Shown: in pieces, positions 4,539-43,655 of the stretch
Numbering within the stretch: the stretch's first letter is position 1
How the letters are laid out: each line of letters opens with the position of its first letter
Assembly (NCBI GenBank): GCA_001001185.1
Contig: LCKC01000001.1
Location: forward strand, 1 to 43,655
Reading direction: 5' to 3'
Source of the DNA: Parcubacteria group bacterium GW2011_GWB1_45_10
GTDB lineage: Bacteria; Patescibacteriota; Minisyncoccia; UBA6257; Brennerbacteraceae
DNA: 43,655 bases
Made by a program: the position numbers and the translations under genes
Notes under the pieces: generated by a model
The model's input: the letters and a program-made list of their open reading frames with translations, nothing else
The model's database searches: none
What the model was told of the DNA's origin: nothing

Positions 4539-4547
4539 ACACGTTCA

Positions 4548-4694
4548 CCCCTCACTTAGTTAAGACCTTCTTGTTTTCAGTGTTAATTGATTAACTTTAT
4601 CTAAAGAATAGGTGCGCTGTTCTGACCTTAACAAGCTTACAGTCATGTTAAAAACCAACCAAGACAATAACACTTATCTTAACTAGATGAGGGG
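4548..4694. repeat. 147-bp inverted-repeat-bounded intergenic cassette with TGAA/ttca flanks
   Basis: The arms are cccctcacttagttaaga (4548-4565) and tcttaactagatgagggg (4677-4694), 18 bp with 2 central mismatches. ttca lies at 4544-4547 and at 4695-4698. Confidence 0.6.
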
Positions 4695-4706
4695 TTCAGC
4701 GCTGAT

Positions 4707-5943: not shown

Positions 5944-6082
5944 GCAAAAACTCACAAGCTTTTTCGCGGTTTTGCGACACAGCGGGCAGGGTGTCCCGCC
6001 TTTAGCGGGACGAGCGAGGAGTAATACCAACAAAACTCCACGCTGGGGAGTTTTGTGTAGAAAAAGGCTTGTGAGTTTCTGC
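5944..6082. repeat. 139-bp inverted-repeat-bounded intergenic cassette (lysS-eno spacer)
   Basis: The arms are gcaaaaactcacaagc (5944-5959) and gcttgtgagtttctgc (6067-6082). Internal hairpins include caaaactcc/ggagttttg and gcggg/cccgc. Confidence 0.55.
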
Positions 6083-7536: not shown

Positions 7537-7675
7537 CCCTGTAGTAGAATTTTGACCAATCGCTTATTTAGGCGATTAACCTTTATTTAAGTTAATTATA
7601 CTATCTCTACAAATTACCCTGCAGATCTGAATCTCGACGCGATAATGAAAAAACTGTCAAAATTACACTACAGGG
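7537..7675. repeat. 139-bp inverted-repeat cassette, copy A (abuts lysS ATG)
   Basis: The arms are ccctgtagtagaattttgac (7537-7556) and gtcaaaattacactacaggg (7656-7675), 20 bp with a central 2-nt mismatch. It is about 90 percent identical to copy B by eye. Confidence 0.75.
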
Positions 7676-7677
7676 TT

Positions 7678-8151
7678 CTAAGATATTTTTATGATTTTAT
7701 AATCTATTTTCTTACCCAAAAGATTGGTAACAAAAACCTGGTCGCCGGCTTTTTTGCCCAAAAGCGTCTGTCCAAGCGGAGATTCGTTGGAAATAAACCC
7801 TTTGCCCGGATCTGACTCTTCAGAACCGACAATCGTGAACTCCATTTTTTTGACACCCTGTTTCACCTCAACGGTCGAGCCGATGGCCACGGTCGTTGAG
7901 TTTTGCCTTTTTTTAATCACCGCCGCCCTTTTAATCAAGTCTTCAAGCTCCAAAATCCTGCCTTCGTTCATGGCTTGAGCTTCTCTGGCTGACTCGTAAG
8001 CCGGGCTGTCAGTGATATCGCCGGCCTCAACCGCCTCCTTGATTCTGTCGGCGATTTTCTTCCTTTCAATGTTTTTCAAAGCGTCAAGCTTGACTCTCAA
8101 ATTCTCCAAGCCCTCCTGAGAAACGTAATAAGGTTTGTTTTCCGTATCCAT
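7678..8151 (-). CDS. greA: Transcription elongation factor GreA
   Basis: MDTENKPYYVSQEGLENLRVKLDAL... has the coiled-coil N-domain with acidic tip residues and a C-terminal globular domain. I use the ATG at 8149-8151 (157 aa). The tracked TTG at 8175 would read through the repeat arm. Confidence 0.9.
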   Translation of the reverse strand: MDTENKPYYVSQEGLENLRVKLDALKNIERKKIADRIKEAVEAGDITDSPAYESAREAQAMNEGRILELEDLIKRAAVIKKRQNSTTVAIGSTVEVKQGVKKMEFTIVGSEESDPGKGFISNESPLGQTLLGKKAGDQVFVTNLLGKKIDYKIIKIS

Positions 8152-8152
8152 G

Positions 8153-8291
8153 CCCTGTAGTAGAATTTTGACCAATCGCTTATTTCGGCGATTAATCTTA
8201 ATTTAAGTTAATTATACTATGTCTACAAATCATCCTGTACCGCATGAATCTCGACGCGATAATGAAAAAACTGTCAAAATTACACTACAGG
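8153..8291. repeat. 139-bp inverted-repeat cassette, copy B (1 nt from greA ATG)
   Basis: It has the same arms and interior as copy A, in direct orientation 616 bp away. Differences cluster in the central ~25 nt. Confidence 0.75.
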
Positions 8292-8603: not shown

Positions 8604-10460
8604 TTATTCGCTTATCCTATTCTCCCAGTACCAGTACAAAATCTGTTTTGCCAAAGGCACGGCCGTGGCGCCGCCGGAACCGCCGGACTCAACCAAAACC
8701 AAAAGCAAAAACTTCGGATCTTCTGCCGGAATAAAAGAGACAAAAGCCGCATTTGTATCTGTCAGACTTGAGCTTGTCTGGATGCTGCCGGTTTTGCCGG
8801 CAACGGAAAACGGCAGGCCGGCCATTCTGCCGGCGGCCGAACCGTCAATGACTGTTCTTTCCATGCCGCGGTTGACAATCTTAAAATAATTTTCATCAAT
8901 CTGATACTCCCTTAAAACCTTTGGGCTGCCATGGTAAACCTCTTGTCCGCCTTCCGAGTTAAAAACAGAGTTAATCAGGAACGGCCGGAAAACTTTTCCC
9001 AGATTGGCGAAAAGCTGATAATTTGCCGCCAACTGGATCGGCGTGGTTTTAACGTAACCCTGGCCGATCGAATAATGATAAGTGTCGCCGATGCGCCAGA
9101 TGTCTTTGAAAGTTTTTTCTTTCCATTCAGGATCCGGCAAAAAACCAGGTTTTTCCCCCAAGAAGTCAGTTTCGGTTTTCTTGCCCCAGCCGTATTTTTC
9201 AAGATATTCTTTGATTCTTTCAACCCCCAAACCCTTGATATTGCCGTAGCCCCCGCCAATGGTGTAAAAATAAACGTTGGCAGAGTCAGCAATCGCTTCT
9301 TCCATATTAACGAACCCGTGAGCTTTCCAGTCCCTGAAAATATACGGCTGATCCGGAAAATAAGGATTTTCAATCGTAATCTTTCCTTCAGTGTCGTCAA
9401 CTTTAAACAACGGATCAATGATTTTTTCTTCCAAAGCCGCCAGCGCGATAAACGGTTTAATGGTTGAACCCGGGCTGTATTCGCCGCTGACTGCCCGGTT
9501 AAAAAACGGCTGGGCCTTGGAATCAGACCAGATTTTTTTTGAAGTATCAAAACCGGGATAGCTCACCAAAGCCAGGATCTCGCCGGTTTTCGGCTCAAGC
9601 GCGACCGCCACCGCGCCGGAGCCGGCGTCAAAAACATTGTCCCGGAAAATCTGATAGATTTTTTCCTGCAGCTTGGCGTCAAGCGTCAGCCTGATTGAGT
9701 TGCCGGTTTTAAAATAATTGCTTTTTTCCTGACCAATCAAGTCGTCCTTAACGTCAACCTGATAACTAAAACTTCCCCGGCTGCCGCGAAGGTAACTGTC
9801 ATAAAACAGCTCCACGCCGACCTTGCCGATTGTCTGGCTTAAAGACAAGTCCTGATTTTCTGCATGCTCTTTTTCCGTAACCAAGCCTGTATAGCCAAGA
9901 ACATGGCTCGTGGCTTCTTTCAAAGGATAATGCCTCTGGTAGCGGCCGACGAGCTTGAAACCAGGCATCAAAGCCTCATTGGCTTTAAACTCAATCGCCT
10001 TATCCAAGTCAAAGTTTTCAAAAACAACTTCTTTGTTTGAATCAAGTTTTTGGCTGATCTCGTCTTTGGCAATGCCCGAAATTCTTGACAAAGTTTCCAG
10101 CTGCAGCTCAAAATTATGGCCGGAATCCAGATTTTCTTTGATCGGCAAAACCTCAAAATAAACTTGGTTATCCGCCAGAACATCGCCATACCGGTCAAAA
10201 ATCAACCCCCGCGGCGCTTCAAGAAAAATATTCCGCAAAGAATTTTCTTCTGACCGCCGTGCATAAGCCGGATGCTGAAAAATCTGAAGCTTAAAAGCAA
10301 CCCCCAGGCTCAAGAACATGAAAAAAGCCACCAAGCCCAGGATGAAAAAAACATACTTTCTGCCGATGGAAAACTCCAGGCGCTTGGCGAAAACCGCGTT
10401 GTTTTCCAAAAGTATTTCTTCCGGCTCAATGATAAAACTGTTGTTTCTTTTGAGTTTCAT
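8604..10460 (-). CDS. mrdA: Penicillin-binding protein 2 (elongasome transpeptidase)
   Basis: 618 aa with an N-terminal TM anchor and the transpeptidase motifs STIKP (SxxK) and KTGS (KTG). It is positioned after mreBCD. Confidence 0.85.
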   Translation of the reverse strand: MKLKRNNSFIIEPEEILLENNAVFAKRLEFSIGRKYVFFILGLVAFFMFLSLGVAFKLQIFQHPAYARRSEENSLRNIFLEAPRGLIFDRYGDVLADNQVYFEVLPIKENLDSGHNFELQLETLSRISGIAKDEISQKLDSNKEVVFENFDLDKAIEFKANEALMPGFKLVGRYQRHYPLKEATSHVLGYTGLVTEKEHAENQDLSLSQTIGKVGVELFYDSYLRGSRGSFSYQVDVKDDLIGQEKSNYFKTGNSIRLTLDAKLQEKIYQIFRDNVFDAGSGAVAVALEPKTGEILALVSYPGFDTSKKIWSDSKAQPFFNRAVSGEYSPGSTIKPFIALAALEEKIIDPLFKVDDTEGKITIENPYFPDQPYIFRDWKAHGFVNMEEAIADSANVYFYTIGGGYGNIKGLGVERIKEYLEKYGWGKKTETDFLGEKPGFLPDPEWKEKTFKDIWRIGDTYHYSIGQGYVKTTPIQLAANYQLFANLGKVFRPFLINSVFNSEGGQEVYHGSPKVLREYQIDENYFKIVNRGMERTVIDGSAAGRMAGLPFSVAGKTGSIQTSSSLTDTNAAFVSFIPAEDPKFLLLVLVESGGSGGATAVPLAKQILYWYWENRISE

Positions 10461-10741
10461 CCCGTTAGAGACAGGAAACGCTTTAATCTGTTTTTCAAGT
10501 AGCGTTTGCCCATGCCTGATTTTAAATACTTTTCTCCCGACCTGGCGTCAGCAGTATTCATAGAGGCTTCATAGTAAATCAGGTCAAAAGGTCCACGGTT
10601 CTTCTTCCAACCAACAATTTCCTTATTATGCTCAGTAAAGCGTTTCCGTAAATCATCGGTAAAACCCGTATACCACAGGCTGTTTTTTCTACTCCTGAGT
10701 ACATAGATATAGTAGTATTGTTTGTCTATAACGGGATTCAT
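10457..10741 (-). CDS. GIY-YIG nuclease family protein (94 aa)
   Basis: YYIYVLRS...LWYTGFTDDLRKRFTEHN... is a GIY-YIG/URI core. Its start overlaps the mreD stop as ATGA, and its stop overlaps the mrdA start as ATGA. Confidence 0.85.
   Translation of the reverse strand: MNPVIDKQYYYIYVLRSRKNSLWYTGFTDDLRKRFTEHNKEIVGWKKNRGPFDLIYYEASMNTADARSGEKYLKSGMGKRYLKNRLKRFLSLTG
10460..10736 (-). mobile_element. GIY-YIG gene cassette bounded by 13-bp terminal inverted repeats and a TGAA direct duplication
   Basis: On the plus strand, tcccgttagagac (10460-10472) faces gtctataacggga (10724-10736), matching 12 of 13 positions as an inverted repeat. A ttca flank lies on each side (10456-10459 and 10737-10740). 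Confidence 0.65.
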
Positions 10742-11193
10742 TCCCCTTTCTTTTTTAATATTTTTGCCGCCATAAACTCCAAAGCCAGAACCGCCAGGAA
10801 TATTAAAATCGCCAGAAAATAAAGATTAAAGTCTTTGACTTTAAAAAGCCAAGCCGCCGCGGCAAAACTCAAATTTAAATAAACCAAGCCGCCAATCAAA
10901 GTTTTCACCCGCGGCTGAAACTTGGCGAATGTTTTGACAAAAAACAGCGGCATTGCCATCGGCAGACCCAAAAACAAAAAACTGTAAACCAGATTCATGC
11001 CGGAAAACAAAGAAAGAAAAGCGGAAAAAACTGTCAGAAGGACGAGACCTTCAAGCAAACCGAAAGAAAAGCGGAAAAAACCGTAACCAAACCAGACAAA
11101 AAACAAAATTCCCGAAGACAAAACCGGCGCCAAGCTGAAGCTCGACAAAGCCAGCAAAGCGACACCGGTCAAAAGAAAAAATGCAAAAACCAT
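10738..11193 (-). CDS. mreD: Rod shape-determining protein MreD (polytopic membrane protein)
   Basis: 151 aa, almost entirely hydrophobic helices, placed immediately after mreC. The call rests on synteny. Confidence 0.6.
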   Translation of the reverse strand: MVFAFFLLTGVALLALSSFSLAPVLSSGILFFVWFGYGFFRFSFGLLEGLVLLTVFSAFLSLFSGMNLVYSFLFLGLPMAMPLFFVKTFAKFQPRVKTLIGGLVYLNLSFAAAAWLFKVKDFNLYFLAILIFLAVLALEFMAAKILKKKGE

Positions 11194-11898
11194 TTATTGG
11201 CTGAAAATATTTTTAACGATTGAGACTTTGAAAATTTCGCCGATTTTGAAAGGAACCTCAACCACGGCTTTTTTGAGATTAACTTCAGAAGAATTTTCCA
11301 GGCTTGATGCCGAACCAAGGTAAAACCCGGATTTGAAAACCCCGTCTTTACCCGAAGTTTCAACAAACGCAGTTTCAGAAATCTCGGTTTCTTTCGGCAA
11401 AAAATCAACGACAAACCGGCTGCCGTCAAAATAAAACACGCCGTTAAAAATCAAGGATGGGTCTGCCTGGATTCTCGTGGCGATTTTAAGCGACGGGTCA
11501 AAAATCGTTTTGACGACGCTGAAATCTTTTTCTGCCCGCTCAACTCTGCCGAATAAAGTGTTTTCGGAAACAATCACCCAATCCCCGACACTGAGATTGT
11601 CCGCCGAACCCCGGTTAATGAAGACTTTTTTGCCGCCGGAACCGATTAAAAATCCGATAATCTCGGCTTCATTTTCGGCTTTGACGCCGAAGTTGTCGCG
11701 CCACGACTTTGAGGCCAAAGTTTCTTCAAGTCTGATAATCCTTGACTGGAGCTCGTTTTCATTGATTTTCGGGTTGAAGATTTCAGCAAAAGCAAGAATC
11801 GCGGAATCCCAGCCGAGCTTCAAAAAAAATCCGACAAGAAAAACAGATAAAAAAGTCAAAATCAGTCCGGTTTTTTTAAAACTTGTCTTAGTTATCAT
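11194..11898 (-). CDS. mreC: Rod shape-determining protein MreC
   Basis: It has an N-terminal TM, a coiled-coil and a beta-rich periplasmic domain, and sits between mreB and mreD. I prefer the ATG at 11896-11898 (MITKTSF...) to the tracked TTG at 11919. Confidence 0.75.
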   Translation of the reverse strand: MITKTSFKKTGLILTFLSVFLVGFFLKLGWDSAILAFAEIFNPKINENELQSRIIRLEETLASKSWRDNFGVKAENEAEIIGFLIGSGGKKVFINRGSADNLSVGDWVIVSENTLFGRVERAEKDFSVVKTIFDPSLKIATRIQADPSLIFNGVFYFDGSRFVVDFLPKETEISETAFVETSGKDGVFKSGFYLGSASSLENSSEVNLKKAVVEVPFKIGEIFKVSIVKNIFSQ

Positions 11899-11936
11899 GA
11901 AAAACCTGTTTAATTCCAATCAAAAGAACGGAGTGA

Positions 11937-12992
11937 TTAAACCGGAGCCCTGTCTGAAAAAGCGTCAATCAAAACCCCGGAAAGCCGGTCAATGTCCTCC
12001 AAAACAATGCTCGCGCCCCGGACAACCGCGGTCAACGGGTCATCAGCAACCCTGACCGGCACGCCGGTCCGCTCAGACAAATACTCTGACAACCCGCCCA
12101 ACAAACTGCCGCCGCCGGTCATCATCAAACCCTTGGTCATTAAGTCAGCGACAAGTTCCGGAGGCGTTTTCTCAATCGTTTCTTCAACCGCCTGAATCAG
12201 GCTTTCAACCGAATCTTTTATCGCTTCCCGAACGTGTTTTTCCTTGATTAAAATTTCCTGGGGCAGGCCGGAAACCAGATTTCTGCCCTTAATGACCATT
12301 TCTTTATTCTGACCGGAATCAATCGCCGAACCAATCGAAATTTTGATGTCTTCGGCAGTCCGTTCGCCAATCGCCATTTTAAACTGATCTCTGGCGTAAT
12401 TAATAATATCTTCGTTGAGTTTGTCGCCGGCATAACGGACACTCCGGGAAATAACAATCCCGCCCAAAGAAATAACCGCAATCTCCGCCGTACCGCCGCC
12501 AATATCAATGATAAAGTTTCCCGAAGCTTCGCCAACCGGCAGTTTGACGCCAATGGCCGCGGCCATTGGCTCTTCCACCAGAAAAACCTGCCTGGCGCCG
12601 GCATTTTTGCCTGCCTGAACGACAGCTCTTTTTTCAACCTCAGTGCCGCCCAGGGGCACGCCGACAACCACTCTTGGACGATTTGGCAGAAAAGCGGAAA
12701 ATTCGTTCTGAACTTTATCAAAAAAATATTTGAGCATTTTTTCCGTCACTTCAAAATCCGAAACCACGCCATGCCTCAACGGCCTGATGGCGACAATATG
12801 CCCGGGCGTCCGGCCGACCATTTTTTTGGCTTCTTTGCCGACCGCCAAAATCTGGTTGGTTTTTTCATTGATGGCGACGACTGACGGCTCGTTAATGACA
12901 ATTCCCCTGCCCTTGATGTAAACCAAAGTATTGGCCGTACCCAGGTCAATGCCGATGTCTTTTGAAAATAAACCGAAGATTGCGTCAAACAT
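11937..12992 (-). CDS. mreB: Rod shape-determining protein MreB (actin-like ATPase)
   Basis: Phosphate-1, phosphate-2 and adenosine motifs are present: DLGTANTLVY..., IDIGGGTAEIAV and MTGGGSLLGGL. Confidence 0.95.
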   Translation of the reverse strand: MFDAIFGLFSKDIGIDLGTANTLVYIKGRGIVINEPSVVAINEKTNQILAVGKEAKKMVGRTPGHIVAIRPLRHGVVSDFEVTEKMLKYFFDKVQNEFSAFLPNRPRVVVGVPLGGTEVEKRAVVQAGKNAGARQVFLVEEPMAAAIGVKLPVGEASGNFIIDIGGGTAEIAVISLGGIVISRSVRYAGDKLNEDIINYARDQFKMAIGERTAEDIKISIGSAIDSGQNKEMVIKGRNLVSGLPQEILIKEKHVREAIKDSVESLIQAVEETIEKTPPELVADLMTKGLMMTGGGSLLGGLSEYLSERTGVPVRVADDPLTAVVRGASIVLEDIDRLSGVLIDAFSDRAPV

Positions 12993-13422: not shown

Positions 13423-15927
13423 CTACTTTCCGTCTTTTCCGAACGCAATCATTGTTTTGATGACTGAATCAGGGTTTAAACTGATGGCCTGGATGCCGAT
13501 TTTTTTCAAAAACATGGCAAACTCCGGATAGTCGCTCGGCGCCTGGCCGCAAATGCCGACGTATTTTTTCTTTTGATTGCATTTTTCAACAATGGTTTTT
13601 ATCAGCTCTTTGACTGACGGATTGTTTTCATTAGCAATGTGGGCAATGATACCCGAGTCGCGGTCAAGCCCCAACGTCAGCTGGGTCAGGTCGTTTGAGC
13701 CGATTGACATACCGTCAAACAGCTTCAAAAACTCGTCAATCAAAATCACGTTTGAAGGAATCTCGGCCATCATGTAGATTTTCAGATTTTTGCCTTTTTT
13801 CAGCCCGGCTTTGGCCATCACTGCCAGAACGCTTTTGGCTTCTTCAACTGTCCGGCAAAACGGCACCATTGGCACCACGTTTGTTAAACCCATATTTTCT
13901 CTGACTTTTTTGATTGCCTGGCACTCCAAGCCGAAAGCTTCGCTGAACTTCGGATCGTAATAACGCGAGGCGCCGCGCCAGCCAATCATCGGGTTTTCTT
14001 CATCCGGCTCGTAAAACGGGCCGCCGAGCAAAGTGCCGTACTCATTGGTCTTGAAATCTGAAAACCTGATAATCACGTCAAAAGGTGAAAAAGTCGCGGC
14101 AATCATGGCAATGCCTTCGGCCAGCTTGTCAACGTAATACTGCTTTTTGTTTTTGTAGCCCCGGGTCAGCTTTTCAACCTTTATCAAAGCGCTCTGAACT
14201 TCCCGGCGGCTGTGCTGATAAAAAGATTTCTGGTTTTTTCTTAATTTTTCATAATCAATCAAAATGTTCGGATGAACTCTTATTTTTGAAGCGATAATAA
14301 ACTCCAGCCGGCCGAGCCCGACGCCCTGGACCGGCAAAGAATGGTACCGGAAAGCTTCGTCAGGTGAACCGATGTTCAAAGAAATCTTGGTTTTCAGCTT
14401 GGGCAGGCTTTTCAAGCTGTGCTTCATCAGCTTGAACTTTAAGACTCCGGGATAAATCCGGCCAGCTTCGTCTGACGAACAGTCAACCGTGATTAACTGT
14501 CCGGTTCTCAAAACCCTGGTGGCGTCCTGACTGCCGACAATGCACTGGACGCCAAGCTCCCGTGAAACAATCGCCGCGTGCGAAGTCCGGCCGCCTTTGT
14601 CAGTGATAATCGCTGAAGCGATCTTCATAATCGGCTCCCAGTCCGGGTCAGTGATTTCGGTCACCAAAATCTCGCCTTTTTTAAAGGTGTTGATGTGTTT
14701 GGCGTCTTTAATCACCCTGACTTTGCCGGAAACAATCTTTGTCCCGATTGGAATGCCGGAAACCAGCGGCCTCGACGGCTTGGAAACAACGCTGTACTCT
14801 TCATAAACAGTTTCTTTTTTCCCGGCATGAATTGTTTCCGGCCGCGCCTGGACAATGAAAAGCTCTTTGGTCAAGCCGTCTTTCGCCCACTCAATGTCCA
14901 TCGGCGTGTATTTTTTGTGCTTTTTTGAAAAATGCTCTTCAACCTTGACGCAGTCTTTCGCCAAAGAAATCACTTCTTTGTCTGTCAGGGAATAAGCCTG
15001 CCTTTCTTTTTCCGGAACCGAAACAATCTTCACCGGCCGCCTGCCGGGTTTTAGTTGCGCCGGCCCAGTCGAAGCAGCTTGCGCTGATTTATCCTGAGAT
15101 TTGCCGAAGGAGCCTGCCGAAGCGTAAATCATTTTCAGATTTTTGCCGGAAAGCTTTTTGCTGATAATCGGATAAAAACCTTTTGCCAAAGACGGTTTGA
15201 AAAGAATAAATTCGTCCGGGTCAACTTTGCCCTGGACAATCATCTCGCCCAAACCGTAAATGCTGTCAATAATCACGGCGTTCTTAAACCCGGTTTCCGT
15301 GTCAATCGTGAAAGCGACTCCGGAAACCGCTTTGTCGGCCCGAACCATTTTCTGGACGCCGACAGACAAAGCGACGCTCATCTGGTCAAACCCCTTGTCA
15401 ACGCGATAGCTGATTGCCCGGTTGGTGAACAAACTGGCATAACATTTTCGCGTCGCTTCAAGAAGATCTTTTTCTCCGCGAATGTTCAGATAAGTTTCCT
15501 GCTGACCGGCAAAGCTGGCGCCGGGCAAATCTTCGGCGGTTGCCGACGACCTGACGGCGACGTCAACATTTTCCGTTTTGTACTGCCTTGAAAGCTCGTG
15601 ATAAGACTTTATAATCTGCTTTTCCAGATCTTTGGGAAACGCGCCGGACAAAATAAGATTTCTGACAATCTTGCCCCTTCTCGCCAAATCCATGACATTA
15701 TGCGTGTCCAAACCTTTCAAAGCTTGCCTGATTTTCTCTCCAAGGCTGTTAAACTTGACGAAATATCTGAATGTTTCGGCGGATACGGCAAAACCATTCG
15801 GAATCTTCACGCCCAAAGGCACAAGTTCGCGATACATCTCGCCCAAAGCCGCGTTTTTGCCGCCAACCAGCCCGACGTCTTTAATTGAAAGATTTTTGAA
15901 CCAAAAAATATGCCTCGCTTTCTTCAT
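13423..15927 (-). CDS. ppsA: Phosphoenolpyruvate synthase (pyruvate, water dikinase)
   Basis: 834 aa with an N-terminal PEP/pyruvate-binding domain (VGGKNAALGEM), the swivel phospho-His motif GGRTSHAAIVSRELG and a C-terminal PEP-utilizer barrel (GSNDLTQLTLG). Confidence 0.9.
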   Translation of the reverse strand: MKKARHIFWFKNLSIKDVGLVGGKNAALGEMYRELVPLGVKIPNGFAVSAETFRYFVKFNSLGEKIRQALKGLDTHNVMDLARRGKIVRNLILSGAFPKDLEKQIIKSYHELSRQYKTENVDVAVRSSATAEDLPGASFAGQQETYLNIRGEKDLLEATRKCYASLFTNRAISYRVDKGFDQMSVALSVGVQKMVRADKAVSGVAFTIDTETGFKNAVIIDSIYGLGEMIVQGKVDPDEFILFKPSLAKGFYPIISKKLSGKNLKMIYASAGSFGKSQDKSAQAASTGPAQLKPGRRPVKIVSVPEKERQAYSLTDKEVISLAKDCVKVEEHFSKKHKKYTPMDIEWAKDGLTKELFIVQARPETIHAGKKETVYEEYSVVSKPSRPLVSGIPIGTKIVSGKVRVIKDAKHINTFKKGEILVTEITDPDWEPIMKIASAIITDKGGRTSHAAIVSRELGVQCIVGSQDATRVLRTGQLITVDCSSDEAGRIYPGVLKFKLMKHSLKSLPKLKTKISLNIGSPDEAFRYHSLPVQGVGLGRLEFIIASKIRVHPNILIDYEKLRKNQKSFYQHSRREVQSALIKVEKLTRGYKNKKQYYVDKLAEGIAMIAATFSPFDVIIRFSDFKTNEYGTLLGGPFYEPDEENPMIGWRGASRYYDPKFSEAFGLECQAIKKVRENMGLTNVVPMVPFCRTVEEAKSVLAVMAKAGLKKGKNLKIYMMAEIPSNVILIDEFLKLFDGMSIGSNDLTQLTLGLDRDSGIIAHIANENNPSVKELIKTIVEKCNQKKKYVGICGQAPSDYPEFAMFLKKIGIQAISLNPDSVIKTMIAFGKDGK

Positions 15928-16071
15928 CCCGTTAGAAGCAAGAAACCTGCTTCAAAATATTTATGAGAGGTTTCTTAGCTGATTAATTTATCAATGTTTT
16001 TTATTACGAATCCCGATGGTTTCTGCCGACGGAGCCGCGTTTGACACGGCGGAGCAGGGCTTCTAACGGGA
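15927..16071 (-). mobile_element. ORF-less miniature derivative of the GIY-YIG cassette at the ppsA start codon
   Basis: Its termini tcccgttagaagc / gcttctaacggga form a perfect 13-bp inverted repeat, with ttca flanks at 15923-15926 and 16072-16075. It keeps the codons for MNPV... at one end and ...FLLLTG-stop at the other. Confidence 0.6.
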
Positions 16072-16106
16072 TTCATAAAAAATAAACGGTTAATTCGCTT
16101 ATCTTT

Positions 16107-22100: not shown

Positions 22101-22392
22101 ATAAGCAGTTAGCAAGAAACCCCACCTGCCGGCGGTTCCGCTTCGCGAAACATCGCCGGCTTTTTTGCTGCGCGCAAAAAACCGGAAGAAACGACGCGCA
22201 GGCGTCATTTCTTCCACCTATTTCTGATCCCGATTTGCGGGATAACGCTGGTTTCTTCGCCTTGCGAAGAATCAGAGAAAACGCTAAGCAGCTAGCGTTC
22301 GCCCGCCTAACGCTGGCGCCGAAAAACGGCGCATCAGCGTTTTTCTTGCTTCGCAAGAAACCGGAGAAAACGCTAAGCAGTTAGCGTTTTCT
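22100..22392. repeat. Array of at least nine short GC-rich stem-loops, including a duplicated copy of the rpsI 3' end
   Basis: The hairpins lie at 22128-22160, 22159-22184, 22184-22215, 22227-22243, 22253-22271, 22280-22299, 22309-22341, 22342-22360 and 22365-22392. The unit 22251-22299 repeats at 22339-22388. Confidence 0.7.
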
Positions 22393-22875
22393 CCATTGCG
22401 GGGCGCGGCGGGCTTTTTTCAAGCCGAACTTTTTTCTCTCTTTTTCCCTGGCATCCCGCGTCAGCAAGCCGCTGAGCTTAAATATTTTTTTAAGCTCCTG
22501 ATTCTCTTTGATAATCGCCCGGGCAATCGCCAGTCTTGAAGCTTCTGCCTGACCCCTGACACCCCCGCCTCTGGACGTAATCTCAACGCCGAATTTTCCC
22601 AAAAGGTCTGCAACTTTCAAAGGCTCTTGAACGATTTTTTGCATCTCCAAAATGGGGAAATAATCATTCAGGGTTTTGCCGTTTATCAAAATCTCTTTTT
22701 TGGAACGATAAAGCTTGGCGACAGCGGTCGCTCTTTTTCTTCTGCCCAAAGCTCTCAGATATCTGTCTTCCGCAAGAACCGCTTTTTTCGGCTCTTTGAC
22801 GGCTTTTTCCGAGTCGGCTTTTTTTATTCTTGGCTTTGTCGTCGCCGGGGTCTTTCTTGTTTTTTTCTCAACCAT
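22381..22875 (-). CDS. rpsI: 30S ribosomal protein S9 (with Lys-rich N-terminal extension)
   Basis: GGGVRGQAEASRLAIARA...LLTRDAREKERKKFGLKKARRAPQWRKR is the canonical S9 C-terminus. Confidence 0.95.
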   Translation of the reverse strand: MVEKKTRKTPATTKPRIKKADSEKAVKEPKKAVLAEDRYLRALGRRKRATAVAKLYRSKKEILINGKTLNDYFPILEMQKIVQEPLKVADLLGKFGVEITSRGGGVRGQAEASRLAIARAIIKENQELKKIFKLSGLLTRDAREKERKKFGLKKARRAPQWRKR

Positions 22876-26684: not shown

Positions 26685-28121
26685 TTAATCAACCTGGATT
26701 TTTATGGCATCAATGTTTTTCGGAGAGCTCCTGACCCAGAAAGGCCAGACAGAGACCCTGATTTTTTGGACGCCTTCAAGCTTTAAAAGCTCTTTTTTGA
26801 GCTCTTCAATGTTTTTGCCCGCGATTTTCTGTTTGAACTCCAGGGTGTCCACCACAGCGCTCAAATCTCTTTTGACATTGGCTGTCAGGCTGATGGTTGA
26901 TTTTTCAAAATCAACTTCGGGATTTTCGTAAAGTATCTGGTAAGAAGCAGAGCTTAAATCAACTTTAAATCCCTGTGTTTCCGTCATCTTCGCTTCAATC
27001 GTTCTTTTAAGCTCGTTTTCGTCAAAAACAAAGATGGCCAAAGAACCGGAGATTGTCGCTTTCAGCTTTTCGGCCACTTCACCGACCGCCGACGTGGTTA
27101 TTTTCCCCAGATCAAACCTGACGGCTTTGTCCAAAAGTTTCAGGCTTTCCGGGGCCTGGCTTAAAGCCTCGCTTTTCGCTTTCTCATAAGCGTACTCAGT
27201 GATTTTTTCTTTGGCGAGCTTGATGTCGTCGGCGGAAACCGCGGTCGTCAAACCTGAAGCGCCGCCGGAAAAAGGATTTTCTGAAACGCCGTAAATATTA
27301 TTGAACTTCGCTGAACCGGAAAAAGCCGGAATCGCGAATCTGACAGGCCCAAGATTGTAATCCGGGCCGGCTTGGTCGGCTTTCAGCTGGGCGGAAATCT
27401 TGCCGGAAACAATTTTACCGGCTTCAGTGGTGTAGCCCGGCACGACTGTCCTTGAAACCAAACGGAAGATTTTCTTGTCCGGAGATTCAAACCTTGTTCC
27501 GGCGACCAAAATCTGGGAACTGGCGGAGTTTTCATTGTAAATAACAATCTCGCCCGAAGCGAAGCTTGAGCCCTGGCCCTGCCCGGTGGCCGGGTAATCC
27601 TGGGTGTAAGAAAAAGACTTTTCAAACTGGTAAACCGGCAGTTCAATGCTGCCACCCGAACCAAGCTCGCCTGGTTTTTTGAAAGTTACTCTGAAGCTTT
27701 GCGACTGAGTTTCTTTTTTCGTCTCAATGCCGATGTCCACCCGGCTGATGGTGGAACCGAACGCCCAAACCGCAAAAATCAAACCAGAGACCGCGCTGAT
27801 AATCAAAGCTGGTTTAAAAAATCTTCTTGGTTTTTTTGCTTTCGGCAAAACCGAAAACGGCGCGGATTCAAAAGGTTGTTGAACAGTTTCCGGAATCATA
27901 ACTTCCGGCTCTGAATTTGAAATCATGGTTTCAGCCAGAGGCTTTTCTTTTGGCGTTCTTTTGGAAAGTTTTGTCTTTGCCGACGCTCCTGAATTATGAG
28001 TGATTGTTTTCAAAAACTCGTCTTCCAAAGACGGCCTTGCCTCATTGGCTTCAAGCTCTTGTTCGGACTGCGGCCTTGGCGAAGAGTTTTTTACTTTAAT
28101 ATCAATGATTCTTTTGGCCAT
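26685..28121 (-). CDS. Hypothetical single-pass membrane protein (478 aa)
   Basis: A disordered charged N-terminus, one TM (ALIISAVSGLIFAVWAF) and a large extracytoplasmic beta-rich domain. The family is not confidently recognised. Confidence 0.5.
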   Translation of the reverse strand: MAKRIIDIKVKNSSPRPQSEQELEANEARPSLEDEFLKTITHNSGASAKTKLSKRTPKEKPLAETMISNSEPEVMIPETVQQPFESAPFSVLPKAKKPRRFFKPALIISAVSGLIFAVWAFGSTISRVDIGIETKKETQSQSFRVTFKKPGELGSGGSIELPVYQFEKSFSYTQDYPATGQGQGSSFASGEIVIYNENSASSQILVAGTRFESPDKKIFRLVSRTVVPGYTTEAGKIVSGKISAQLKADQAGPDYNLGPVRFAIPAFSGSAKFNNIYGVSENPFSGGASGLTTAVSADDIKLAKEKITEYAYEKAKSEALSQAPESLKLLDKAVRFDLGKITTSAVGEVAEKLKATISGSLAIFVFDENELKRTIEAKMTETQGFKVDLSSASYQILYENPEVDFEKSTISLTANVKRDLSAVVDTLEFKQKIAGKNIEELKKELLKLEGVQKIRVSVWPFWVRSSPKNIDAIKIQVD

Positions 28122-28252
28122 CCCGTTACTAAAATTTTGGCAATCGCAAGACTAAAGTCAAGCAAACTCCAAAATTAAAATAATTAATTATTGACTCATT
28201 TTATACGCCCGCTTTTTTGGCGATTCAGAAAAAAGCCAAAATTTAGTACGGG
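28122..28252. repeat. 131-bp inverted-repeat cassette abutting the start codon of the 478-aa gene
   Basis: The arms are cccgttactaaaattttggc (28122-28141) and gccaaaatttagtacggg (28235-28252). The arm plus the adjacent aatcgc resembles the A/B arm (ccctgtagtagaattttgaccaatcgc). Confidence 0.6.
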
Positions 28253-28266
28253 ACAAGTAATAAAAA

Positions 28267-36101: not shown

Positions 36102-37490
36102 TTAGATCACCGGCAAGTTTGGCGGCGGCTCGTATTTCTTGGTCTGAACGCGATAAAGTCTCGGCGCGCCGGTCTGGGTCAGCGGGAAATGATACAAAGT
36201 CGCCAGTTCGTCCGTGGCAAAAATCATTTTTTTCATAATGTTCTCTTCGTCATCGTCTTCAAGAGCAAACTGCGGCGCCGGATCAGGCAACCTTGATTCA
36301 TAAGCCTTGAAAAGATTGTTCGCGTCCTGGTAATCCAGACTGTCGCCCAAAACCCATTTAATCAGGAAAAACCTGGTTTTACGCTTGTTTTTGAAACCGT
36401 TGAGGTTTGCCAGGGTAAAGCTCCGGAAATAAGAGTTAATCGCCGCGCTTTTCTGGTCTTTTTCAAAAGAAGCTTTCGGGGCGAGATAAATAACCCTGAC
36501 GACGGCTTCAAAAACTGTTTTTGAAACTTTGTTTTCCGCCCGCTCAACTTTCATTCTTTCGCCGCCCGACGGGCCTTCTTTTTTCTCTTCTTTTTTTTCT
36601 TCTTTGGCCGGCTCGGCTTGAGGACTGGTAAGCGAACCAAGGTCTTTGGCAAAACCTTTGACGACATTGGCTGACTCGTCGGCCAGGCCTTTGGCAATCT
36701 GCTTCAAGCCGCCCGGCTCTTTGGCTTCTTCTTTTTTGCCCAAAAGCTTGTCAATTTCTTTTTTGGTTTTTTCTTTCCAGGAATCGGACAACGGCTTGGT
36801 CAAGCCCCGCAGGACCATCTGCATCCAAATCTCTTCGCCGTTTTCCAGACCGCTCAAAACCTCCAAAAACGGCGCCATTGAGTCAAGCCGCCTTTCTTCA
36901 ACCCGCTCTTCAAAAAATTCGTAAGTTTTAATCGGGAAAACCGGCGACTCGTTCAAAGTCAATTCCGCCGCCCAGATGTTGTAATAATTGTTCGGCAAAG
37001 AAGAAAATCTTTTGACGTAATCTTCAATCTCGGTTATCTCCACCTGCGGATACTGCGAACGGAACTGAGCTTCAATCAAGTTCTTGAATTTTTTCGGCGT
37101 GTGGATAATAAACGAAATCCCCTCTCTGGTGCCAAGAATCTCAAAAGAAACCCAAAGCGGCACTTCGCCTTTTTTAAAAGGAATCTTCCGGTCCAAAAGC
37201 TCTTCCAGCCAGGTGTCCGGCGTTGAAGCAATCACTGACAAGCCGGTGAAAACCTGGTCCATGACTTTCGGCGTCGTCAAAACGTCCTGCGGAATTTTCA
37301 GCTCAAGGTTAATCCACTCAATGCTTTCTTTGAACTTTTCCTGGTTGTAATTTATCCAAAACTCCAAAGCAACGTAAAACGCGACAAACGGCAAAAACAG
37401 CCACCACCAGTCCACAAAAGCGCCCCACAAAGCCAGGAAAATGCCTTCAATCAAGCTGTTGGAAAATAAAAAATTATACAAGCTGTCCAT
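36102..37490 (-). CDS. Hypothetical membrane protein partnered with the ATPase
   Basis: 462 aa with two N-terminal TM helices (IFLALWGAFVDWWWLFLPFVAFYVAL), an internal Lys/Glu-rich linker and a C-terminal ...ELATLYHFPL motif. It lies 53 nt upstream of the ATPase. Confidence 0.5.
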   Translation of the reverse strand: MDSLYNFLFSNSLIEGIFLALWGAFVDWWWLFLPFVAFYVALEFWINYNQEKFKESIEWINLELKIPQDVLTTPKVMDQVFTGLSVIASTPDTWLEELLDRKIPFKKGEVPLWVSFEILGTREGISFIIHTPKKFKNLIEAQFRSQYPQVEITEIEDYVKRFSSLPNNYYNIWAAELTLNESPVFPIKTYEFFEERVEERRLDSMAPFLEVLSGLENGEEIWMQMVLRGLTKPLSDSWKEKTKKEIDKLLGKKEEAKEPGGLKQIAKGLADESANVVKGFAKDLGSLTSPQAEPAKEEKKEEKKEGPSGGERMKVERAENKVSKTVFEAVVRVIYLAPKASFEKDQKSAAINSYFRSFTLANLNGFKNKRKTRFFLIKWVLGDSLDYQDANNLFKAYESRLPDPAPQFALEDDDEENIMKKMIFATDELATLYHFPLTQTGAPRLYRVQTKKYEPPPNLPVI

Positions 37491-37504: not shown

Positions 37505-37646
37505 ACCCTGTAGTGAAGTTTTGACAACATTATTTCCGATTGATTATCCGGGGACTCTTTTTCTACTAAAAATACAGCAGAACTCTGCCGCCAAACTCAG
37601 TTTAACACAATGTTTATGAAGGAACGTCAAAACTCTACTACGGGGT
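37505..37646. repeat. 142-bp inverted-repeat cassette upstream of the 462-aa membrane protein gene
   Basis: The arms are accctgtagtgaagttttgac (37505-37525) and gtcaaaactctactacggggt (37626-37646). The arm sequence is clearly related to copies A and B. A solo cccgttaaaaaccaatcg lies just outside at 37651. Confidence 0.65.
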
Positions 37647-38888: not shown

Positions 38889-39947
38889 TCAAGATTCCAG
38901 CTTTTCTTTGGTTTTAAAATCTTTGTTCACTTTTTTCCAAAACTGCTTTTTCTCCCTTTGGTAATCAAGGCTTTTCTTTTGTTCAACGAATCTAGCTTCG
39001 CTCTTGAGTTTGAGCCAGCTTTTGTACCGCTCAAAAGAAAGCTCTTTGTTTTCCACGGCTTTAAGAATGGCGCAGCCTTTTGAGCTTTGATGGTCGCAGT
39101 CGGAAAACTGGCAGTTTGAGCTCATTTTCTCAATCTCTTCAAAAAAATCGCTGACGCTGTCTAAAGACGCCAAAATCTGAAGCTCGCGCATGCCCGGGGT
39201 GTCAATCACCAAAAAACCTTCCGGCAGAACGAAAAGTTCGCGTTTAGTGGTCGTGTGCCTGCCTTTTGAGTCTTTCCCCCTGACTTCCTTCGTCGGCAAA
39301 ACTGTTTCTTTCAAAAAACGGTTGATGATGCTTGACTTACCGACTCCCGAAGAGCCGATGAAAACCGCGGTCTCGCCCGGCTTCATCAAACCCGCCAGCT
39401 CTTTTAAACCAGCTCCGGTTTTGGCGCTGGTCAGAACAACTTTTTCTTTTGCCAGCCTGGTTTTTATTTTCCGCAAAACAGAGTCCCCGGCGTTCAGGTC
39501 AAGTTTGTTAAAAACAACCACCGGCTCAACGCCGCCGTCCCTGACCGCCACCAAATACCTTTCCAACCGGTTCAGATTAAAGTTGTTGTCCAGGCCCTGG
39601 ACCAAAAACGCTTTGTCAATGTTTGCCGCAATCACCTGCTCTTCAATCGCCTGGCCGGGCTTCGGGTCTTTCCTTGAAATCTTTGAAAACCGCGGCAAAA
39701 CTTTTTCCAGCAAAACTTTTTTTTCGCCTTTAAGTTTTTTGAACAAAACCCAGTCGCCGGTTTTCGGCATGGCGCTTTTTCTGGAAAAGCTTTTCAAAAT
39801 AATGCCTTCAACTTCGCCGAAAGCCGTGTAAAGAATCCAGTTTTTGCGGTTCTCAACAGCCACCCGGCCAATCAGTTCTTCTTTGACGCCAAGCTCTCCG
39901 CCAATTTTATTTTTATAGTTTTCAAAACCCCAATGAGACAAGTTCAT
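38889..39947 (-). CDS. rsgA: Ribosome small-subunit-dependent GTPase A
   Basis: A circularly permuted GTPase (NKLDL...GSSGVGKSSIINRFL...DTPGMRE) with a C-terminal zinc knuckle (CQFSDCDHQSSKGC). Confidence 0.9.
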   Translation of the reverse strand: MNLSHWGFENYKNKIGGELGVKEELIGRVAVENRKNWILYTAFGEVEGIILKSFSRKSAMPKTGDWVLFKKLKGEKKVLLEKVLPRFSKISRKDPKPGQAIEEQVIAANIDKAFLVQGLDNNFNLNRLERYLVAVRDGGVEPVVVFNKLDLNAGDSVLRKIKTRLAKEKVVLTSAKTGAGLKELAGLMKPGETAVFIGSSGVGKSSIINRFLKETVLPTKEVRGKDSKGRHTTTKRELFVLPEGFLVIDTPGMRELQILASLDSVSDFFEEIEKMSSNCQFSDCDHQSSKGCAILKAVENKELSFERYKSWLKLKSEARFVEQKKSLDYQREKKQFWKKVNKDFKTKEKLES

Positions 39948-40072
39948 CCCGTTAGAAGCAGATCGCGATCTTAAAAAGACGAAATCTGCAAATTAATGTT
40001 ATATTTTCCTGTTTAATCTAATTACATTCTTTTTCCCATTATTTCCCGCGGCGATCGCGGCTTCTAACGGGA
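39947..40072 (-). mobile_element. ORF-less miniature derivative of the GIY-YIG cassette at the rsgA start codon
   Basis: It has the same 13-bp termini as the 15927 copy, with ttca flanks at 39943-39946 and 40073-40076. It retains MNPVRS... and ...LLLTG-stop remnants. Confidence 0.6.
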
Positions 40073-43409: not shown

Positions 43410-43655
43410 TTACGCCTTGCCTTTAATCAGCGCCAGTTTGGCTTTCCTTTTCAGGCTTTTAATCTGCGCTTCGCGCTTCAACGCTTTGTTTTTTGTCTGA
43501 AACCGTTCAGAGTAAACAATTTTTCTGGCTTTATGCGAAACCGTGTAGTGCCCGCCTTTTTTGTTTTTGTGCTCCAAAAACCGCCGTTCAAGATTGTTGG
43601 TAATGCCAGTATAAAGGCTTTTGTCCTGGCATTGAAGAATGTAGAGAAAATACAT
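43410..43655 (-). CDS. GIY-YIG nuclease family protein (81 aa; start at window edge)
   Basis: MYFLYILQCQDKSLYTGITNNLERRFLEHKNKKG... is a GIY-YIG core. Its stop lies 7 nt upstream of the NUDIX start codon. Confidence 0.8.
   Translation of the reverse strand: MYFLYILQCQDKSLYTGITNNLERRFLEHKNKKGGHYTVSHKARKIVYSERFQTKNKALKREAQIKSLKRKAKLALIKGKA

Follow-up and report, generated by a model that had tools for sequence, protein, structure and literature searches.

A 277-bp inverted-repeat unit with a GIY-YIG nuclease gene at the mrdA start codon of a Parcubacteria bacterium is probably one copy of a mobile element family

We analysed a stretch of 43,655 nucleotides (nt) from Parcubacteria group bacterium GW2011_GWB1_45_10 (assembly GCA_001001185.1, contig LCKC01000001.1, positions 1 to 43,655 of the forward strand), hereafter called the window. 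Its minus strand carries an operon with the genes for MreB (12992..11937), MreC (11919..11194), a 151-amino-acid (aa) protein in the position of MreD, a small GIY-YIG nuclease and PBP2 (mrdA), in this order. The 151-aa protein gave no Pfam match, and we call its gene mreD because it occupies place X of the mreB-mreC-X-mrdA operon and because its sequence resembles that of a membrane protein. Between mreD and mrdA lies a unit of 277 bp that is bounded by terminal inverted repeats (TIRs) and holds the nuclease open reading frame (ORF). We conclude that this unit probably belongs to a family of very small mobile TIR elements, which occurs mainly in bacteria of the candidate phyla radiation (CPR, Patescibacteria) and has its own GIY-YIG enzyme.

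On the minus strand the surroundings of the element read ...aaaggggaATGAA / TCCCGTTATAGAC...GTCTCTAACGGGA / TGAAactcaaaag, where the slashes mark the element ends. The first-pass annotation of this DNA, made from the letters alone, had described a GIY-YIG cassette on the mreD/mrdA ATGA junction, bounded by a 13-bp inverted repeat with 12 matches and by TGAA on each side, and all of these features were recovered at the same coordinates. The two TIR arms (10736..10724 and 10472..10460) are complementary at 12 of 13 positions. The mreD stop codon TGA (10740..10738) overlaps the ATG of the nuclease ORF (10741..10739), and the TGA of this ORF (10459..10457) overlaps the ATG of mrdA (10460..10458), each as a 4-nt ATGA overlap. 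In-silico removal of the element together with one TGAA gave ggggaATGAAactc and left mreD (ending ...KKGE) and mrdA (beginning MKLKR...) intact; the plain mreD-stop/mrdA-start overlap is thereby restored, as the annotation had held. With TGAA as the target, the nuclease ORF ends in an ATGA overlap, and the coupling to the downstream gene is therefore kept. Scans of the window against Rfam (gathering thresholds) and for tRNAs gave no matches, and the unit therefore has no known ribozyme, intron or tRNA-like end.

The nuclease ORF is built from the element plus its target, and the element contributes neither a start nor a stop codon to it. The start is borrowed from the host, as had been claimed, and is a host ATG or GTG; the stop TGA is formed by the first three bases of the right-hand duplicate. 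The first six and last four codons of the ORF are the TIRs themselves, so that the C-terminus ...SLTG is indeed encoded by the right inverted repeat, and the family consensus of the left TIR, TCCCGTTAGAGAC, encodes the (N)PVRD seen at the ends of homologs. These homologs fall into more than 3,000 clusters, mostly of exactly 94 aa and nearly all of 86-97 aa; a 100% match was to Parcubacteria bacterium GW2011_GWC1_45_9. The terminal repeats are conserved among them: the DNA of the protein ends MNPVRD and FLSLTG is the inverted repeat, and these ends are kept in about 100 of 120 homologs, with 70 of the 120 beginning MNPVR and 88 finishing LSLTG. Residue 2 is N, S or G according to whether the duplicated NN is AA, AG or GG, the pattern expected if the first two bases of this codon come from the target and the third from the element. 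Some homologs have a frame-shifted N-terminus (MIPLET...), the frame that a 3-bp duplication would give, and 3-bp flank matches do occur among the copies; others have read-through tails (...SLTGFGGK, ...SLTGKI), which a non-TGA target would yield.

By profile, residues and fold the 94-aa protein is a member of the GIY-YIG superfamily. It matched PF01541 as its sole Pfam domain (residues 9-76; E=1.9e-14; score 54.1 bits, cutoff 22.6). Among 30 homologs Y24, G26, R32, H38, E70 and N84 were invariant and Y11/Y13 were at least 90% conserved, and we take the catalytic roles of these residues to be those assigned after I-TevI and UvrC; the GIY tyrosine, the Tyr-x-Gly of YIG, and the Arg, His, metal-binding Glu and Asn of the superfamily are thus all accounted for. 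An AlphaFold2 model (pLDDT 83) predicted strands at 10-17, 23-28 and 52-60 and helices at 31-39, 63-74 and 76-93, which make up a GIY-YIG fold, and an unstructured, TIR-encoded N-terminus. The best Foldseek matches were UPF0213 protein BH0048, Slx1, HIGLE and the N-terminal part of UvrC, the closest solved structures being uncharacterised UPF0213 proteins and the branched-DNA nuclease Slx1. No transposase (DDE, HUH, or serine or tyrosine recombinase) was found in the element, whose sole ORF encodes the GIY-YIG domain. At 43410-43655 on the minus strand lies another minimal GIY-YIG gene (MYFLYILQC...), which is divergent and is cut by the window edge; its product is 32% identical to the first, and it has no TIR of the present family at its 3' end.

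The ends of the junction element recur at three further places in the window (Table 1). Two of these are ORF-less short elements of about 130-150 bp: the last A of short element 2 is the start-codon A of a PEP-synthase-like gene (15927..13423), and the last A of short element 3 is that of an ORF at 39947..38889. The third, candidate 4, is diverged; it ends in ...ACGGGA directly before TGG, and its last A makes the ATG of an ORF at 28121..26685. Folded as single strands, these three units formed long hairpins closed by their arms (z = -6.7 for short element 2, and -3.8 and -3.7). The inverted repeat and the TGAA flanks at the mreD/mrdA junction are not a chance pattern, as the same ends recur in the window and in other genomes.

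Table 1 Coordinates of the elements and of the genes and parts at the mreD/mrdA junction
Feature	Position	Strand	Description	Basis
Full-length element	10460..10736	minus	277 bp, TIR to TIR	
Left TIR	10724..10736	minus	TCCCGTTATAGAC; codes for residues 2-6, (N)PVID	
Right TIR	10460..10472	minus	GTCTCTAACGGGA; codes for SLTG; final A is the A of the mrdA ATG	
Left target duplication	10737..10740	minus	TGAA; with host A at 10741 makes the GIY-YIG ATG; contains mreD stop TGA	
Right target duplication	10456..10459	minus	TGAA; gives GIY-YIG stop TGA and TG of the rebuilt mrdA ATG	
GIY-YIG nuclease ORF	10457..10741	minus	94 codons; minimal single-domain, UPF0213/Slx1-like fold	
Internal stem, 5' arm	10637..10647	minus	GGAAACGCTTT; codons of invariant LRKRF	single-stranded DNA fold, pairs with 10484..10474
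Internal stem, 3' arm	10474..10484	minus	AAAGCGTTTCC; codons KRF; 1 nt from right TIR	single-stranded DNA fold
Upstream host gene (mreD by position)	10738..11193	minus	stop overlaps borrowed start	
Downstream host gene mrdA (PBP2)	8604..10460	minus	begins at rebuilt ATG	PF03717 and PF00905
Short element 2	15927..16071	minus	ORF-less; TCCCGTTAGAAGC...GCTTCTAACGGGA; flanks ATGAA (16076..16072) and TGAA (15926..15923)	
Short element 3	39947..40072	minus	ORF-less; identical 13-nt TIRs TCCCGTTAGAAGC / GCTTCTAACGGGA; flanks ATGAA and TGAA	
Candidate 4	28121..28253	minus	diverged; flanked by TTG (left) and TGG (right); TIRs longer and imperfect, TCCCGTACTAAATTTTGGC / GCCAAAATTTTAGTAACGGGA	

Short elements were scanned for in GTDB species genomes and full-length elements in JGI metagenomes, with the two arms specified and the flanks left free. 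The search patterns demanded perfect arms of 10-13 nt and fixed length ranges, and most of the sequences were metagenome-assembled, in which repeats can be mis-assembled. Counts of copies, here and below, are counts among the matches listed. At least 230 further copies were found, mainly in CPR bacteria; the named hosts were nearly all CPR and included Saccharibacteria, Paceibacterota, Kaiser-, Wolfe-, Yanofsky- and Nomurabacteria, Kazan and others. A few copies, at seven loci, lay in bins labelled Omnitrophota, Elusimicrobiaceae, Phycisphaerae or Gammaproteobacteria, labels that could reflect mis-binning or real spread beyond the CPR. The two-arm patterns for short and full-length elements had no matches in viral contigs, and therefore no phage link was seen. 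A search of viral contigs with the bare 14-mer gave 107 matches, which we discarded, as a rough estimate puts this number at about chance level.

Results showed that identical 4-bp flanks bordered 91 of 128 unique short sites (71%) and 60 of 103 unique full-length sites (58%), where 0.4% would be expected by chance. These duplications spanned 11 tetranucleotides, including TGAA, TGGA, TGAG, TGCG and TGTA, and were of the form TGNN in 85 of the 91 short and all 60 full-length cases. The tetranucleotide differed between copies and agreed on both sides within each copy. These results indicate that the duplication was made at insertion and is not carried by the element, and the TGAA flanks that had been pointed out at the mreD/mrdA junction are therefore genuine. 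An A preceded the duplication in 87 of the 91 short sites. Copies preceded by G had GTG at the left junction but ATG at the right one; the final A therefore belongs to the element, and the host start is rebuilt from this A and the duplicated TG, in line with the earlier claim of a re-created start codon.

In 77 of the 91 oriented short copies (85%) an ORF of 100 codons or more began at the rebuilt ATG; by comparison, 4.8% of all ATGs in the same loci were the first ATG of an ORF this long (P about 3e-86, binomial). In 22 of 74 full-length copies and 16 of 91 short ones, the left junction coincided with an ATGA in which the stop of an upstream gene overlaps the start, and the mreD/mrdA arrangement of the window is therefore typical of the family. 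Rare duplications without ATG (CATA, TAAA, CTGA, CTTA and TTAA) were also seen, so the target preference is not absolute, and selection probably sharpens the start-codon pattern. One full-length GIY-YIG element was flanked by TTAA on both sides without an ATG, an insertion away from a start codon. A subfamily copy with the arms CCCCGTTAGAGAT / ATCTCTAACGGGG was followed directly by TGAA and another element.

Among 112 full-length copies oriented by tblastn, 277 bp was the modal size (53 copies). The ORF was open from the left to the right junction in 62 of them, 53 of which started at the host ATG or GTG, and none of the 112 was reversed relative to the downstream gene. Targets of TGA type were found at 57 of 60 full-length and 60 of 85 short sites (Fisher P = 2e-4), an enrichment in ORF-bearing copies that follows from the stop codon being supplied by the right duplicate. 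Duplication-supplied stops had escaped the first-pass annotation.

PBP2 relatives at 66-73% identity kept the synteny mreB-mreC-mreD-mrdA-greA-lysS and had no element at the junction. A homology search with MreD gave one relative, and the empty sites were reached by a PBP2 search. Empty mreD/mrdA junctions were found in L366, L360, L362 and L365. In the closest of these, L366 (PBP2 73% identical), the junction reads ...aaaagaggATGAAgctt, with the stop TGA of mreD (...IIKRG) lying within ATGA, which is the kind of empty site that had been predicted. For the identical protein, ten contexts were recovered, all of them the same locus in different samples; the copy is therefore fixed in the species, and no within-species empty site was found. 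A more distant relative, L357, has an ORF-less element of about 130 bp at the same junction (795-930; flanks ATGAA and TGAA). Its arms TCCTGTTAGAA / TTCTAACAGGA differ from the window arms on both sides with the pairing preserved, so that either another subfamily inserted here independently or an orthologous copy underwent compensatory evolution.

Occupied sites were also re-used. Ten abutting element pairs shared a single spacer of 3-5 nt, of TGAA type or its reverse complement. They include a triple tandem, in which two identical GIY-YIG copies and one short element occupy the start codon of a GTPase gene, which indicates that a rebuilt start codon stays a target. The clearest sign of recent movement is a pair of 98%-identical short elements, each at the start codon of one of two adjacent genes, whose flanks are unrelated.

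One rival explanation takes the nuclease ORF as an ordinary gene of the operon, with an inverted repeat and ATGA overlaps that coincide by chance in a common ATGAA start context. ATGA overlaps and ATGAA starts are common, with 105 ATGAA in the window, and of the five related junction types recovered, four have an mrdA that begins ATGAA. We regard this explanation as practically untenable, since the repeat is kept throughout the family and on ORF-less copies, and since variable flanks match, an empty site exists and copies stand in tandem. A classical free-standing GIY-YIG homing endonuclease gene, which would cut the empty mreD/mrdA allele and be copied by recombinational repair, is likewise very improbable. 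Close relatives lack the gene, which is thus an insertion, and the catalytic part of the protein weakly matches the group I intron endonuclease model TIGR01453, below threshold (19.6 bits; cutoff 56.05), both of which would suit a homing enzyme. Homing needs a long specific site and leaves no target duplication, whereas the element occurs at 200 or more unrelated loci that share only (A)TGNN; the protein is a 94-aa catalytic core with no further DNA-binding domain, and ORF-less derivatives with the same ends exist. The diverse insertion sites and the target duplications effectively refute the homing explanation.

Among the short elements, 120-121 bp was the modal size. In 48 of 91 of them the 34 nt inside the right arm held a perfect hairpin of 6 bp or more, where 3.1 were expected from shuffled sequences; 41 of these hairpins lay exactly 1 nt from the arm, and they comprised 32 different stem sequences with loops of 3-4 nt. 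The last 30 nt or so of the short elements match the 3' end of the gene (...AAGCGTTTCCTGTCTCTAACGGGATGA), and when the full-length window element was folded as single-stranded DNA (ssDNA), GGAAACGCTTT (10647..10637) paired with AAAGCGTTTCC (10484..10474) directly inside the TIR stem, an internal stem that had previously been overlooked. The shared 3' end and the same stem indicate that the short elements are deletion derivatives that keep two nested stems. The near-invariance of the protein's C-terminal third may be due to the LRKRF and KRF motifs doubling as this second stem. In short elements the ORF that begins at the upstream ATG is short and ends within the element, and no Shine-Dalgarno sequence was found before their rebuilt ATG.

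This architecture would also suit elements that are now chiefly host-serving 5'-leader structures, comparable to domesticated REP/RAYT, whose stem and hairpin are kept for an effect on downstream translation or mRNA stability and which the nuclease maintains or disperses at a low rate. The ends and the hairpin geometry are conserved and the interiors unalignable, the hairpin is about three times commoner on the side of the host gene (48 right against 15 left), the loops include GCAA, GTAA and TTCG types, and the uniform orientation relative to the host gene, the paired arm changes in L357 and the fixed mreD/mrdA copy all point the same way. Domestication has been proposed for NTS-ssnA-NTS by the authors of the Ssn study discussed below (PMC11893778). 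The closest relatives nevertheless have no element at the junction, which is therefore not required for mrdA expression, and tandem pile-ups on one start codon and many pseudogenised copies look parasitic. A predominantly host-serving role seems to us rather unlikely; it accounts for the persistence of the elements and not for their origin, and is compatible with a mobile family rather than a true alternative to it.

For the mobile family the copies show the following. Integration at (A/G)TG-NN duplicates the 4 bp TGNN, and the surviving copies are almost all at gene start codons. The element reads 5'-TCCCG...CGGGA-3' on either strand; its terminal A and the right-hand TG therefore rebuild the host ATG, and the original host ATG, the NN and the first T of the element open the frame M-N-P-V-R-D.... 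The 94-aa protein may act as the element's own enzyme in the manner of the Ssn nucleases, GIY-YIG proteins of 94 aa that were shown by experiment to bind hairpin repeats in ssDNA, cutting a few nt 5' of them (Chenal et al., Nat Commun 2025, PMC11893778). In single-stranded form, the TIR stem and second stem of the element would make up the recognised hairpin, and cuts at a fixed distance of 4 nt outside the hairpin base would define the element ends. As GIY-YIG enzymes are hydrolytic, rejoining by ligation or copy-in would have to fall to host functions. Internal-deletion derivatives of 120-150 bp retain the TIRs and the second stem and far outnumber the gene in the sampled loci. The start-codon restriction would reflect a short target preference (TG, usually ATG-purine-purine) together with selection, because only insertions that rebuild a start are tolerated in gene-dense genomes. 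A strand-specific process based on ssDNA would agree with the asymmetric target and with the orientation bias. RNA-level excision and ribosome hopping between the two AUGAA copies were set aside, as they had no support and are not needed for the full-length element.

We infer that the nuclease is the mobiliser because the ORF and the cis elements are tightly interleaved and because its type is related to Ssn. It is unlikely, by our estimate, that the TIR elements are instead moved in trans by an unlinked transposase, with the GIY-YIG ORF as a passenger or an addiction or maintenance nuclease. Several points would favour such a trans-acting enzyme. GIY-YIG enzymes are hydrolytic and have no known strand-transfer chemistry, a single domain of 94 aa is far below the size of any transposase known to us, the ORF is disrupted in 50 of the 112 full-length copies, and in 860 kb of sampled loci tblastn gave 6 GIY-YIG hits against more than 128 short elements. 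The interleaving is harder to reconcile with it: the TIRs are the end codons of the ORF and two invariant motifs form the second stem, as expected of an element's own gene and not of cargo. No other gene lay inside any copy, the Ssn/NTS precedent offers a protein type that recognises its flanking hairpin repeats, and no transposase gene was seen beside the copies examined, for which no systematic search was made. A stronger version of our proposal is that the 277-bp units are autonomous transposons, for whose movement the 94-residue GIY-YIG ssDNA nuclease and host repair suffice. This would make the nuclease a new prokaryotic transposase class and the unit the smallest self-mobilising DNA element known, one specialised for integration at start codons and for sharing its start and stop codons with the host, and we put it forward tentatively, as a possibility.

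Several observations weigh against an element family moved by this nuclease. The copy statistics lean toward intact ends, with decayed copies under-sampled, because of the demands of the search patterns. About 29% of the short and 42% of the full-length sites have no perfect duplication. A 5-bp duplication (ATGNN, with an element ending ...CGGG) is not strictly distinguishable from a 4-bp one and is disfavoured by the GTG-flanked copies only. With the mreD/mrdA copy fixed, there is no sign of present activity at this locus. The interiors of short elements are rarely alike, with 3 pairs at 85% identity or more among the 127 elements listed, which suggests that most insertions are old and that the ends are maintained for some other reason. 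The proposal that the nuclease cuts these ends draws on arrangement and analogy. To our knowledge GIY-YIG nucleases have no strand-transfer or ligation activity, and a full transposition pathway cannot be written down. Finally, the published SRM consensus of the Ssn repeats, HGTCWYN(0-2)YYVSBRHN(0-5)WNVSBRGN(0-2)RNCYNB, had 0 matches on both strands of 91 short elements, 116 full-length elements and the window.

The source genome appears rich in hairpin-type repeats. A second TIR family of about 140 bp (CCCTGTAGTGTAATTTTGAC...GTCAAAATTCTACTACAGGG) occurs on the minus strand at 7537-7675, 8153-8291 and 37505-37646 and has the layout of the first: a TIR, 1 nt and a subterminal hairpin (AATCGCC...GCGATT). 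One copy ends in ...CAGGG directly before ATGGCT, right on the lysS start (7536), another stops just 5' of the likely greA ATG, and the third has TAAA on both flanks and lies 14 nt upstream of an ATG at 37490. In a sister strain (L349; GCA_003521685.1), compared with L348 and with window positions 7537-8291, exactly 616 bp are absent, corresponding to greA and one element of the second family, and a single such element links the region downstream of mrdA to the lysS ATG. This loss reflects either recombination between two direct copies or assembly collapse of the repeat. Further intergenic units of about 120-150 bp lie at 4547-4695, 5944-6082 and 22275-22393, bounded by inverted repeats of 19-25 nt (ACCCCTCA..., GCAAAAACTCACAAGC... 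and GAGAAAACGCTAAGCAGC..., respectively).

The elements show how selfish DNA can live in essential, tightly packed operons at almost no cost, by rebuilding the start codon on which it lands and taking its own start and stop from the duplicated target. They add a leader of roughly 120-280 nt, sometimes with a small upstream ORF, before many CPR genes, which matters for gene calling, start-site annotation and models of translation initiation in these bacteria. Such repeats may also cause rearrangements, of which the greA loss in the sister strain is a possible example. A compact nuclease with hairpin-plus-offset specificity could serve as an ssDNA tool, as the Ssn authors argue for theirs.

The element family is apparently undescribed. 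In the full-text literature searched, from which most subscription journals are missing, we found no other description of start-codon-targeting GIY-YIG elements; this agrees with the first-pass annotation, whose author knew of no such behaviour. The interpretation given there stood, while the ORF-less derivatives, the origin of the stop codon, the second stem and the closest relative, Ssn/NTS, were missing from it.

Bacterial MITEs (miniature inverted-repeat transposable elements) and their parent insertion sequences (Correia/NEMIS, ERIC and RPE; IS630- and IS5-type) share with the elements described here the TIRs, a short target duplication of fixed length, an autonomous-looking long form with abundant internal-deletion derivatives, co-transcription with the host gene and strong predicted hairpins. 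They differ in that no DDE or other known transposase is present here, the target is a start codon, and host and element ORFs share start and stop. The Rickettsia RPEs insert in frame inside genes, which the elements here do not. The smallest insertion sequences that we know of are about 700 bp, against 277 bp for the long form here. IS200/IS605 and REP/RAYT (REPIN) systems likewise combine a small nuclease gene with hairpin repeats, a subterminal hairpin and oriented insertion at a short asymmetric target, and in them too hairpin derivatives outnumber the gene and an ssDNA lifestyle is plausible. They use HUH/Y1 transposases with a covalent intermediate and have neither TIRs nor target duplications, whereas the present element has a GIY-YIG enzyme in place of HUH, true TIRs and a 4-bp duplication. 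With the GIY-YIG homing endonucleases I-TevI and Seg it shares the catalytic domain, carried in selfish DNA whose insertion does the host gene as little harm as possible. Those enzymes have an extra DNA-binding domain and long sites, insert into the cognate allele only, and have no duplication, TIRs or MITE derivatives.

The closest known system is Ssn/NTS, to judge by protein size, domain content, the repeat core, and the flanking and dispersed repeats. Both have a single-domain 94-aa GIY-YIG protein with no accessory domain, a gene bracketed by a hairpin-forming inverted repeat with a core of TCCCG...CGGGA type, and a repeat dispersed as many ORF-less copies, almost always outside coding sequence. 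The structural nearness to UPF0213 (cd10456) neither supports nor opposes a placement in the Ssn clade cd10448. The Ssn repeats are separate, self-contained hairpins of 20-50 nt around the gene, whereas here the arms are the element ends and the gene, or 100 nt in its place, is the loop. The ssn genes are flanked by NTS/SRM repeats, and the authors of that study likened the unit of gene plus repeats to an insertion sequence, without showing mobility; target duplications, a start-codon association, an ORF built from repeat and target, and CPR members were not reported either (PMC11893778). By this comparison the family may be a mobile, start-codon-specific branch of Ssn-like GIY-YIG/hairpin-repeat systems. 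If so, it would supply evidence that Ssn-type units are or were mobile, where the 2025 paper raised the resemblance only.

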